DNA from: Cyanophyceae cyanobacterium
GTDB taxonomy: Bacteria > Cyanobacteriota > Cyanobacteriia > Cyanobacteriales > JBHJGN01
Assembly (NCBI GenBank): GCA_050331735.1
Contig: JBHJGN010000062.1
Span: forward strand, 1-20,818
Length of the DNA: 20,818 nucleotides
Reading direction: 5' to 3'
Below the pieces are notes generated by a model. The model did not search any database and was not told the DNA's origin. It saw only the letters and a program-made list of their open reading frames with translations. The position numbers and the translations under genes were made by a program. Positions 1 to 7,147 of this stretch are shown here, piece after piece (positions within the stretch are counted from its first letter, which is position 1; every line of letters starts with the position of its first letter).

Positions 1-80
1 GCAACTTTTCTGATCGAGCTATCACCTTTTTCTACGGCATCAATTATCTTTTCTCGCAAATCTAAGGAATAAGGCTTCAT
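1..80 (-). CDS. IS630-family transposase, N-terminal HTH fragment (continues beyond window start)
   Basis: Minus strand from ATG at 80 reads MKPYSLDLREKIIDAVEKGDSSIRKVA, the typical YSxDLRxKI start of cyanobacterial IS630 transposases. Confidence 0.85.
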   Translation of the reverse strand, partial: MKPYSLDLREKIIDAVEKGDSSIRKV

Positions 81-139
81 CTGGCAACTTATTTTTACAA
101 TACTAGAGATTGTCCCCTATTTAGCTGCAAACTGCTGTA
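1..139 (-). mobile_element. IS630-family element, left end with TA target dinucleotide
   Basis: Minus strand TA|CAGCAGTTTGCAGCTAAATAGGGGAC... (TA at 138-139) lies about 57 bp upstream of the transposase ATG. IS630 elements insert at TA. The other end is outside the window. Confidence 0.7.
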
Positions 140-181
140 AGTCTTGAGAATCAACGACTAGATGGCGCTTACGCCCTTTAA

Positions 182-234
182 CCGCCGACCCAGCTTGAAT
201 GCATTCAAGCTGAAAAGCGGCGGTGCATTCCGCA
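182..234 (-). repeat. 53-bp structured micro-insertion E1
   Basis: Minus strand TGCGGAATGCACCGCCGC...GGTCGGCGG contains the perfect 22-bp palindrome CAGCTTGAATGCATTCAAGCTG (191-212). Removal restores the codons K-V-K. Homologous to 6587-6640. Confidence 0.85.
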
Positions 235-269
235 CCTTTTTGCCACCATCAAAACCGTAGACTGCCCCC

Positions 270-319
270 TGCTTGGTGCGCGTGACCGCCGGAAGTGGTT
301 CCGGCTAGGTTGCATCCGC
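270..319 (-). repeat. 50-bp structured micro-insertion E2
   Basis: Splits the A7/G5 run of the IS5 remnant. Internal hairpin GCCGGAA-N4-TTCCGGC. Confidence 0.7.
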
Positions 320-327
320 TTTTTTTA

Positions 328-382
328 GTCCGCACCTGGGTTCTCGGAGCTTCGCCATCTCCGCTTTCTGCGCTGGGCGGAC
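328..382. repeat. 55-bp GC-rich segment E3 with terminal inverted repeat
   Basis: Bounded by GTCCGC (328-333) and GCGGAC (377-382), with an internal CGGAG/CTCCG stem. The empty site cannot be reconstructed. Confidence 0.45.
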
Positions 383-403
383 GACGACATTATCTTCGTA
401 GTT

Positions 404-826
404 TTAATTGCTCTCAAGAGTTGTAGTTGAGATACTCCACCATACACGATGTACGAGGGTTGACGAAACGTATACTAGTGTGAATCCAATTAAAGGATGA
501 AGTATCTCTAAATGCAGAGGAGTTTTAAGATGAATGCTGCAAAACTGTAGTCCCATCAGCACTGGTAAGCTAGTAGCTAAAGCACGAATTCTCCTGGAGA
601 AAGGTAAAATCGCCGATCCTGCTAGCAAGACTAATGATATTCCAGCGTACCCCCGCACCCATAAAACATGAATATTCCACCAACCTGGATCGTTGAAGTA
701 AGCAATTCCTACGGTTAACAACTGGGCAATTAAACAGAGATTGAAAAGAACGGCGATCGCATAAAAACCAATTTTCATCCAGTATTGGGGAGATTTGTCG
801 CGACCGAGTGTCGAATTTATAGTCAT
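404..826 (-). CDS. Small integral membrane protein (DUF6220-like)
   Basis: 140 aa with about 4 hydrophobic segments and conserved-looking His motifs (WWNIH, ILHPLIG). Overlaps the upstream gene by 4 bp (ATGA). Confidence 0.75.
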   Translation of the reverse strand: MTINSTLGRDKSPQYWMKIGFYAIAVLFNLCLIAQLLTVGIAYFNDPGWWNIHVLWVRGYAGISLVLLAGSAILPFSRRIRALATSLPVLMGLQFCSIHLKTPLHLEILHPLIGFTLVYVSSTLVHRVWWSISTTTLESN

Positions 827-5674: not shown

Positions 5675-6586
5675 AGCTATTCCTTTTCTGTCAGATTCCG
5701 AGGAATCGAAGAACACAGATAAAAGAAAAATCCGCGATAAGGCAGGGAGAGCGATGGATGTAGAACTACAGATCCTCGCGCCAGTTGCCCGGAGACCCTC
5801 AGCCCACCGTAACGTTTATTGATGAGTATTGTAGCGGCTACAAAGACCTGTTTCCAGAAGTAAGAGGATACGAATGTTTTAAATACCTACATCTAGGAAT
5901 CATTTCCCCAATACCGAGAAAATCATTACCAGAAATAGCCAAAATAGTCGGCATCAATTCAGCCCAGTCACTACACCACTTTATTGCTCAATCGCCTTGG
6001 TCTGTAGCAGAGTTTAGACAAAGAAGATTAACCAAAACCCTCACCGCCTTAGCCGGACAGAAAATTACCATAGTGATTGATGAATGCTTATGGTGTTTAT
6101 GAGCAGGTCACATTTCCGCTGCTGTCTAAAGTGTTCAAACCCAAAGGCACACTAAAACCCGAAGACCAGTACAAAACCAAAATCGAATTAGCTTCACCAA
6201 TTATTGAAGAACTAGTTGAATTTGGCTTTGAAATCGAGCTAGTTCTGGCGGACAGTTTGAGGGCGTGAAAGTAGCGCCTTCATCCACACTTTAGAGCAAT
6301 ATAAGTTGCCTTGGGTCTTAGCAATTAGAAGTAATCATGGAGTGCTAATGCCCTGCGAGCAGAGGGTTAGAGCTAACAAATGGTGTAAGTTTGAGCGAGT
6401 GTTTAGCGACCACACTGCTGAAACTAGATATATCCGAGAAATTATTTTCGGCGAGAGAGATGCGAGAACCTATTGGGAAGTTACCACTGACCCGGAAACA
6501 ATGCCGGACAATTCTACTTCGTTCGTTATGACCAACCTTGCTGGTAAAAGTTCTTAGCTCAAGAAGGTTCTTGGCAATCTTTATGG

Positions 6587-6640
6587 TGCGGAATGCACTG
6601 CCGCTTGCGACCTGGAATCGAATTCCAAGTCGGTCGGCAG
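6587..6640 (+). repeat. 54-bp structured micro-insertion E4 (homolog of E1)
   Basis: TGCGGAATGCACTGCCGCTTGCGACCTGGAATCGAATTCCAAGTCGGTCGGCAG. Removal restores TAT GGG TTA AGA ACC TGG (YGLRTW). Confidence 0.85.
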
Positions 6641-6686
6641 GTTAAGAACCTGGGTTGAATATAGCTTCCGACAGTGTCAACAAGAG

Positions 6687-6739
6687 TCAGCCGGTGCACC
6701 GGAATGCGATTCCGGTGTACCGGCTGACCCTGATACGGG
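6687..6739 (+). repeat. 53-bp structured micro-insertion E5
   Basis: 20-bp stem GTCAGCCGGTGCACCGGAAT-GCG-ATTCCGGTGTACCGGCTGAC (one G-T pair) plus a short CCC..GGG hairpin. Removal restores GAG TTA GGT TGG (ELGW). Confidence 0.85.
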
Positions 6740-7147
6740 TTAGGTTGGACCGACTACCGCTTCACCAAATTTGAGCAAATCGAGAAGTGGTGGGAAATGA
6801 TTATGAGAGCTTATTTAATGATTAGTTTGAAACGAAAGCTTTCGGTCTTTTAAATCAAGCTCAGAGTACACCTAATGCTGAGCAAGGTCTGAGGGATTTT
6901 CCTCGTCATCAACACTGGAATCATCAACAGAGATGGAAAAACACCCTCAATAATCTTCGTTTGATTATTTAACCACTGATTTTGTTGTGGTTAATTTATC
7001 CCTGGTTAGCTGTTTTTCCCAATTCCACCTATTGCTTGGCTTTCGTGACTCTCATGGCCCTCATGAATCAATTTTACTCTTACTTTCCTGACGGGTAAAC
7101 TCGCTTGTTTATGACTTCTTCACCTCGGAATCTGACAGAAGAGGGAT

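Follow-up and report, generated by a model that had tools for sequence, protein, structure and literature searches.

Tiny structured selfish repeats are an already known kind of DNA, with SDRs, REPs, PATEs and RPEs as examples. Small dispersed repeats, SDR1-8, were reportedly described in Nostoc punctiforme and relatives by Elhai et al. in 2008. SDRs are insertion-like and non-coding, are sometimes nested and are linked to hairpin-forming contexts; to our knowledge they have no assigned mobiliser and their mechanism has been open since 2008. PATEs are miniature derivatives of IS200/IS605 elements. Rickettsia palindromic elements (RPEs) have a length of 100-150 nt and belong to a different phylum, and we know of no preference of RPEs for IS genes. 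In integron attC sites one recombination partner is recognised as a folded single strand, the structure of which is conserved while the sequence varies, with R''/R' boxes (RYYYAAC...GTTRRRY) paired at the base. A length of 21-27 nt is given for SDRs, which are reported only in Nostocaceae (PMC5861425). For REPs and REPINs, hairpins of 21-65 nt that are sometimes bulged, a guide located 5' of the hairpin foot and a presumed single-strand movement are described in three sources (PMC3116915, PMC3733652, PMC6006769). Under the guide rule that IS200/IS605 elements and REPs share, the cleavage sites pair with a tetranucleotide adjoining the foot of the hairpin on its 5' side (PMC6006769). RPEs are named in another of these sources (PMC3733652).

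In the present study, a family of small hairpin inserts was analysed on the basis of two copies located in the window, i.e. the whole stretch of DNA under analysis, which is the complete 20,818-base contig (C62) of a 5.57-Mb draft genome (G000), 49.5% G+C. The 20-mer TGCGGAATGCACYGCCGCTT occurs exactly twice in the window, at 215-234 on the minus strand and at 6587-6606 on the plus strand, with 0 occurrences expected from 100 shuffles. An earlier note on this DNA had described two small inserts in two different transposase genes, which was confirmed with the units corrected to those listed in Table 1. Their boundaries, set by structure and empty sites, have a junction ambiguity of 1-3 nt each. 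The gene interrupted by copy 1 is present as a fragment and codes for an IS5-type (DDE_Tnp_1) transposase; the insert is flanked by ...AAAAAG and GTTAAAGG, and the frame is shifted by it. Copy 2, flanked by ...CTTTATG and GGTTAAGAAC, adds 18 codons in frame to a pseudogene for an IS701-type (DDE_5) transposase. Folded as single-stranded DNA, copies 1 and 2 have minimum free energies of -17.1 and -14.5 kcal/mol (z -4.3 and -3.2, respectively), and none of 200 shuffles folded as well. Both copies have the same shape, in which a 4-bp hairpin (GTGC-GGAAT-GCAC) is followed by a 5-bp closing stem, an internal loop with CTT(T/G).. on the 5' side and GGT on the 3' side, and an inner palindrome. The closing stem is CGCCG/CGGCG in copy 1 and TGCCG/CGGCA in copy 2, paired in both, and the inner palindrome is unlike in sequence between the copies with its pairing preserved, so that the covarying closing stem and the divergent but paired inner hairpin noticed earlier were recovered from the sequences of the two copies.

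Table 1. Positions and strands of the features in the window, with the basis of each entry.
Feature	Position	Strand	Basis or remark
End of multi-copy IS630-like element (start MKPYSLDLREKIIDAVEKG...)	1..140	-	Word depth 680 vs 49
IS5-type transposase gene remnant (...AVYGFDGGKK^VKGRKRHLVVD..., insertion point marked ^), host of copy 1	141..420	-	tblastn, DDE_Tnp_1 proteins on both sides of insert
Copy 1, long form, 53 nt, GTGCGG...GGTCGGCG	183..235	-	Sequence, fold, covariance model E about 1e-13
Possible third small structured insert in IS5 remnant, GGTGCGGACT...CGCGCACC	275..336	-	Partial copy on C23
IS701-type (DDE_5) transposase pseudogene, frame changes and in-frame stop	5968..7086	+	Host of copy 2 and of second hairpin insert
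Copy 2, long form, 54 nt, GTGCGG...GGTCGGCA	6586..6639	+	Sequence, fold, covariance model match
Different 53-nt hairpin insert, 20-bp stem, apex CCGGAAT-GCG-ATTCCGG	6686..6738	+	z -7.7

The host genes contain further small inserts. The second hairpin insert in the IS701-type pseudogene is flanked by GT...GT, as in the main family, looks unrelated to it and occurs a single time in the genome; it is missing from four other IS701 copies (C12, C55, C63 and C83) and is also skipped by contigs of the sequencing runs. For the possible third insert, one partial copy with 91% identity was found (contig C23, 169132-169165), and a search for its empty site found none. Opposite window position ~6790, the IS701 copies on C83, C12 and C55 have a small GCCGCCGGAACCTCTTCCGGCGG hairpin insert, which the window copy does not have. 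The IS701 homologue in L140 (907-2022, plus strand) carries its own long-form copy at another position than the window copy, and additionally a 17-residue insert (CDPDEVSSSRERAPRQ) that is not present in the window. The IS5 remnant ends at ~141, where it is cut by another IS. The sequence of the first 140 nucleotides is repeated at the ends of 8 other contigs, and this collapsed IS630-like repeat explains why the contig ends at this point.

Both stretches are true insertions, as the earlier note had supposed; this was checked against uninterrupted alleles at the DNA and at the protein level. For copy 2, the 54 nt are absent from an IS701-like copy on C83, which has ~97% identity in the sequence immediately upstream and reads CTTTATGGATTGAGAACC at this place, and at the protein level the homologue of Crocosphaera chwakensis (L140) reads LGNLYG^LRTWVEY, to which the window adds 18 residues (AECTAACDLESNSKSVGR). 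For copy 1, a diverged IS5 on contigs of two public runs skips 183-239 and reads GGCAAGAAAGTTAAAGGG, corresponding to GKKVKG; due to the fact that the shorter side of this match comprises only 23 letters, it is weaker evidence for an empty site. A decayed own copy of 51 nt on C37 interrupts the tnpB gene of an IS605-like element, the sister of which on C15 is empty (GGTAATCAGT^TGAGGATTGG). Moreover, in the genome of L119 (Crocosphaera watsonii WH 8501) one TnpB gene carries the element at CATG[...]GTTAAGAAC, and three TnpB paralogues read ATGGTTAAAAAT or similar at that place, with the element absent. Empty sites were obtained in four cases at the DNA level (C83, C15 versus the C37 tnpB, the L119 TnpB paralogues and the diverged IS5) and in one case at the protein level. 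Sites with known empty forms are AAG^GTTAAAG, ATG^GGTTAAG, TCA^GTTGAGG and ATG^GTTAAGA, and the junction can slide by 1-3 nt, (G)GT, at every empty site. This short stretch is the sole identity between the junctions, and the earlier statement that there are neither TIRs nor a real target duplication holds. The IS605-like elements on C37 and C15 (L035 and L036) are a pair with divergent tnpA/tnpB genes and 83% identity, each with an in-frame stop in tnpA.

In addition to the two copies known at the outset, further ones were found by covariance-model scans of the genome and its relatives. A model built on five own copies of the window genome (R1) gave the further own members C11, C21 (a short form without 5' hairpin) and C81 as well as the decayed copies C9, C6 and C59. 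Among 151 genomes of the same order, R1 matched in at least 15, G000 included, the count being a lower bound because 37 candidates were scored per genome. A pattern scan of one genome per species yielded at least 120 matches. Among the matches listed are the genera and groups Crocosphaera (chromosome and plasmid), Prochloron, Paraprochloron, Dactylococcopsis, Halothece, Xenococcaceae and Pleurocapsa, and additionally Waterburya, Microcystaceae, Lyngbya, Chroococcidiopsidaceae, Rivularia and Coleofasciculaceae; those listed also include unstructured chance matches in other phyla. The pattern GCCGCTT..GGTCGGC was rejected as a search motif, as it gave only unstructured chance matches in 60 relatives and the family needed R1 or a looser pattern. 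The size of family members ranges from about 26 to 58 nt. Long forms have 53-58 nt, and short forms, which are also dispersed, have 34-50 nt, a GTCTT tag and no 5' hairpin. Mini forms of 26-38 nt (C11, C16) consist of the 5' hairpin and a short stem only, which points to these two parts as the core. The copy number is low, with 6 copies in G000 and about 16-21 in the genome of L119 (6 and 21 matches, respectively, with the better model R2 at E up to 0.001). In L256, a TnpB paralogue of L119, the element has a 15-nt piece nested in its palindrome, and a different 45-nt hairpin insert is located ~20 nt upstream of the element in the same gene.

The family is defined by its fold rather than by its sequence. 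In the long form, the 5' hairpin is N1N2GC-GGAAK-GCN2'N1', usually GTGC-GGAAT-GCAC, the closing stem has 5 bp (YGCCG/CGGCR), the internal loop is CTTT on the 5' side and GT on the 3' side, and the inner palindrome has 11 bp with a conserved GAAT-N2-3-ATTC top. In an alignment of 47 non-redundant long forms (A4), 99.7% of the cells were paired, a percentage inflated by the fact that the rows were script-selected by required pairing, and compensatory changes were found in 15 of 20 pairs (123 cells). When the partners in A4 were slid by 1-3 columns as a control, at most 47% of the cells paired and at most 16 cells changed on both sides. In an unselected check with five arm positions left free, 94 of the 120 matches listed paired at all five positions, with 19 different arms, and the other 26 paired at 0-4 positions. 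Conserved motifs are the unpaired GGAAK loop, C(T/G/A)TT(C/G)C and GGT, together with the GAAT...ATTC top. Copies with broken stems exist among the decayed ones (C37, C9, C6 and C59), from which it follows that the palindromes are not kept perfect automatically.

The ends of the element obey a junction rule. In all 47 copies, the base that directly follows the closing stem is identical to N1 (G in 42 copies and C in 5), an extra own copy with N1 = T obeys the rule as well, and the second base N2 matches the flank in 31 of the 47 copies. In the alignment, column 18 (N1', opposite N1) pairs with the flanking base, column 60, in 43 of 45 distinct rows. Since the junction base equals N1, the internal stretch GCAC-YGCCG is complementary to both ends, namely the 3' arm CGGCR and the 5' GTGC, and the simultaneous pairing with both gives the folded strand the shape of a nicked dumbbell in which the two ends meet. 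The host base after the element is always N1 and can therefore substitute for N1 in pairing; of these two copies of N1, the target contributes one. The 5' hairpin of the earlier note exists, as GTGC-GGAAT-GCAC with a 4-bp stem, but a simple borrowing of the GG of the target does not apply, because the first 1-2 bases of the hairpin covary with the interior of the element. The tallied flanks are RAR before the element and G-T-T/C-N-A after it, corresponding to an A-rich/T-rich site of the type RAR^GTTRA.

A rule of this kind can be compared with the movement of double-stranded DNA by a site-specific recombinase of the IS607-type serine or IS110 type that needs a 1-2-bp core match, in which case the three GAAT motifs would be protein-binding sites. 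IS607-type serine transposases travel with TnpB, and a 2-bp core is used by recombinases of the serine and IS110 types. The element frequently accompanies TnpB-bearing IS, the 1-2 nt of identity at both junctions change together with the element, and GGAAT and GAAT...ATTC are conserved amid variable sequence, all of which would suit such an enzyme. We regard it as unlikely nevertheless, since compensatory changes in all three stems are unnecessary for the binding of a duplex and since the junction base covaries with the internal column 18, which a plain core match does not need.

The same data bear on an enzyme-free origin, in which template switching or gene conversion between hairpins would spread the copies and an intrastrand homogenisation of arms would mimic covariation. 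Microhomology of 1-3 nt is present at the junctions of all empty sites, perfect palindromes are common and copy numbers are low, as expected from such events. However, a homology of 1-3 nt is too short to explain the repeated exact copying into genes that are unrelated and distributed over many genera, decayed copies are retained in spite of mismatches in their arms, the conserved loop and bulge motifs are unpaired, and the triple covariation at the junction would be left unexplained; this origin is considered very unlikely.

The genomic context of the copies was evaluated for the 47 non-redundant long forms. A firm location in an IS gene, defined as Pfam above cut-off or tblastn, was found for 19 of them (9 TnpB, 9 DDE of the IS4/IS5/IS701 types and 1 IscB), and weak matches to IS genes were found for 5 more (24 in all). 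Two long forms are located ~50 nt upstream of a TnpB gene. The DNA similar to a panel of 16 such IS proteins amounts to 0.33% of the assembly bases, which is a lower bound because repeats are collapsed in the assembly. The striking presence in transposase genes noted earlier was seen again, with 19 of 47 firm cases and 24 of 47 when weak matches are included. Of the intact own copies, 3 of 6 are in IS genes. Eight different insert positions were found in the 8 TnpB genes checked by ORF and domain coordinates, and the positions differ in IS701 homologues, too. In at least 10 host genes (TnpB, DDE, IscB), the reading frame continues across an in-frame insert, so that a disabling of IS elements, which had also been suggested, is not general. 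The orientation relative to the host gene is mixed, which argues against an RNA-level role in the transcript of the host as the origin of the signal.

Locations other than transposase genes are intergenic DNA, RNase P RNA, IscB guide RNA, and XisH, Uma2 and YoeB genes. In an RNase P RNA gene (L103, 2384-2822, minus strand; 247 bits), a short form lies inside a long insert in a peripheral helix. Antisense short forms also occupy the interval from the 3' end of the HEARO RNA, the guide RNA of IscB, to the start of iscB (L082 1501-1545, L071 and L085). At least 17 copies of one identical score were found in genome G051, where a multi-copy IscB element carries them in the 3' portion of its HEARO RNA. 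High activity of the element in this genome was considered and rejected, as most of its 30 matches hitchhike in the HEARO RNA of the IscB element. Groups of copies with common flanks across species indicate that IS elements carry copies between genomes. In L063 (1612-3058, minus strand), a group II intron with an RT-maturase-HNH ORF and domain V/VI is located inside iscB, ~55 nt from a long-form copy. In L147, L163, L184, L186 and L194 (Crocosphaera), long-form copies are located within tandem heptamer repeats of the ATGTTCA / ATGAAAG type.

From this distribution, it could be supposed that the unit is not mobile by itself and is a functional RNA or DNA module of IS, such as a transposase regulator or a part of a guide RNA, which spreads with the IS only. 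The share of 19-24 of 47 copies in IS genes, the several copy groups with common flanks across species and the identical-score copies in the HEARO RNA of G051, which were multiplied with that IS, are in line with this idea. On the other hand, close IS relatives differ by the presence of the unit, its positions differ among the 8 TnpB genes and among the IS701 homologues with both orientations occurring, and copies are also present in RNase P RNA, XisH, Uma2 and YoeB genes, heptamer repeats and intergenic DNA. A mere module of IS is therefore judged distinctly unlikely. A route through RNA, in which a reverse transcriptase like those of group II introns or retrons would make the copies and integration would occur at T-rich nicks, appears highly unlikely. 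The fold of the element is conserved as in structured RNAs and one copy is near the end of a group II intron in iscB, but neither 5' truncations nor tails nor a strand link to host transcription were found, the ends at empty sites are exact, and the element has no Rfam family match (E up to 0.1) in 8 copy-bearing loci.

Most likely, the family is a non-autonomous element that is moved as folded single-stranded DNA, and as the best explanation as a whole this reading is given a probability of roughly 0.5. The part of the earlier proposal stating a non-autonomous mobile micro-element stands, with further copies, empty sites and no TIRs, and the folded single-strand intermediate would be the best reading of the covariation. 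Stem covariation, mixed orientation and decayed copies together argue that the folded strand is under selection when the element moves. Excision and the pasting or copying of the folded single-stranded DNA would be the work of a trans-acting enzyme, and the bases for cleavage and insertion would be selected through pairing with bases 5' of the hairpin foot, as in IS200/IS605 and REP. The unit is inserted exactly, without TIRs or a real target duplication, at sites of the RAR^GTTRA type. The majority of surviving copies are located in IS genes, where they are tolerated and with which they are ferried between genomes. The best guess for the mobilising enzyme is a Y1 (HUH) transposase, a guess made because foot-adjacent bases pair with end bases according to the logic of IS200/IS605 and REP.

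Candidates for this enzyme were sought in several ways. Within 1.5 kb of the 8 own Y1_Tnp loci there was no covariance-model match apart from the tnpB insert and weak matches, and within 1.5 kb of 28 Y1 loci in 5 other element-bearing genomes there was none at E up to 1. A single-copy Y1 gene of the YIxNQKxHH type was rejected as mobiliser because its distribution does not match that of the element: of the 151 genomes, 21 others have close orthologues (E below 1e-27), and only 1 of these 21 is among the 14 other element-positive genomes. The motif near tnpA on C37 had been considered as the end of a parent IS and proved to be the insertion in tnpB. A parent IS sharing the ends of the element was not found among the IS605-like elements of C37/C15 and C16; the ends of these elements have other hairpins, and a 5'-like hairpin on C16 follows the tnpB stop and is not at the IS end. 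A long version with the same ends enclosing a recombinase, HUH nuclease or RT, as envisaged in the earlier note, did not come to light. In the assembled contigs of the public runs, neither a circle nor an excision product was seen. Along two complete chromosomes (origins unmapped), the strands of solo copies gave no clear replichore pattern. Further points against the main reading are the short form, which is without 5' hairpin yet dispersed, and the low copy numbers.

In a more specific version, which we regard as rather unlikely, the element would be a hyperparasite of transposons, i.e. a ~54-nt guide-programmed mini-DNA whose GCAC bases select the target by pairing and which prefers the DNA of IS, notably single-stranded intermediates of IS200/IS605 TnpB/IscB elements, and rides them between genomes. 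If this were true, no smaller mobile DNA with ends programmed by base pairing would be known, and the element would offer a single-stranded DNA transposase a natural minimal substrate. For the broader reading as a non-autonomous element moved as a folded single strand, the consequence would be a mobile DNA of defined architecture that ranks among the smallest. Due to the presence of the family in culturable strains such as Crocosphaera watsonii WH 8501, movement is testable, and the ends on the internal complementary stretch together with the covarying junction base provide a mutable hypothesis for the cutting and joining of SDR-like repeats. For annotation, it is relevant that TnpB, IscB and DDE transposases are lengthened by 17-18 codons through the inserts, which are also present in IscB guide RNA and RNase P RNA; in families that are mined for genome-editing tools, the inserts can be misread as variation of the protein or the RNA.

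A full-text literature search found no published description of the hairpin family, with SDR1-8 compared by description only, and no description of the motif GCGGAATGCAC. When 8 copy-bearing loci were searched against Rfam (E up to 0.1), the matches were confined to HEARO, RNase P, tRNA and parts of group II introns, with the element itself unmatched. In comparison with the known systems, the family is like SDRs in being a very small, insertion-like and sometimes nested cyanobacterial repeat with no coding capacity and no known mobiliser, and it might correspond to an SDR long form. It differs from SDRs, as far as the available descriptions go, by its length of 26-58 nt and its two-hairpin fold as against 21-27 nt, and by its occurrence mainly in unicellular and baeocystous lineages as against Nostocaceae. 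With REP/REPIN-RAYT systems it shares the small hairpin, a putative short guide 5' of the foot, a presumed single-strand movement and in-frame insertions in genes. In contrast to REPs and REPINs, it has no GT[AG]G or CGTC tag, the foot bases being GCAC (variants GCAG, GCGG, GCGC and GCGA) or GTCTT in short forms, and it is low-copy, mostly intragenic and not arranged in inverted doublets. A RAYT/REPtron was rejected, as none of 36 Y1 loci has a Y1 transposase gene flanked by copies. The outward direction of comparison includes RPEs, which resemble the family as palindromic selfish DNA located in frame in protein-coding genes that stay open.

The folded-strand logic is shared with integron attC sites, the target is like GTTRRR and the junction can be written as G^TT. 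An attC site was rejected, however, because AAC/GTT boxes are absent at the inner end of the outer stem and the left junction is G^TG; the closing stem is YGCCG/CGGCR, with AC...GT outermost. A MITE was also rejected, the ends GTGCGG... and ...GGTCGGCR not being inverted repeats and the junction identity being 1-3 nt. With IS200/IS605 elements and PATEs, the family has in common the lack of inverted repeats and target duplication, a short conserved target and structure-defined ends. As described for IS200/IS605 (PMC6006769), bases 5' of the hairpin foot may pair with end and target bases. The complementarity and covariation in the family would fit such guide pairing, the geometry of which differs from IS608, and element-bearing genomes are rich in TnpA, TnpB and IscB. 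In contrast to IS608, the family has one main hairpin instead of a left-end and a right-end one, and GTGC cannot be all flank; in contrast to IS200/IS605 elements in general, the unit has only 53-54 nt, and its pairing is plain Watson-Crick and includes bases of the element. New in the family are its dumbbell of two hairpins, in which the base at the junction covaries, and a bias, documented here, towards IS genes as well as towards the RNAs of RNase P and the IscB guide.
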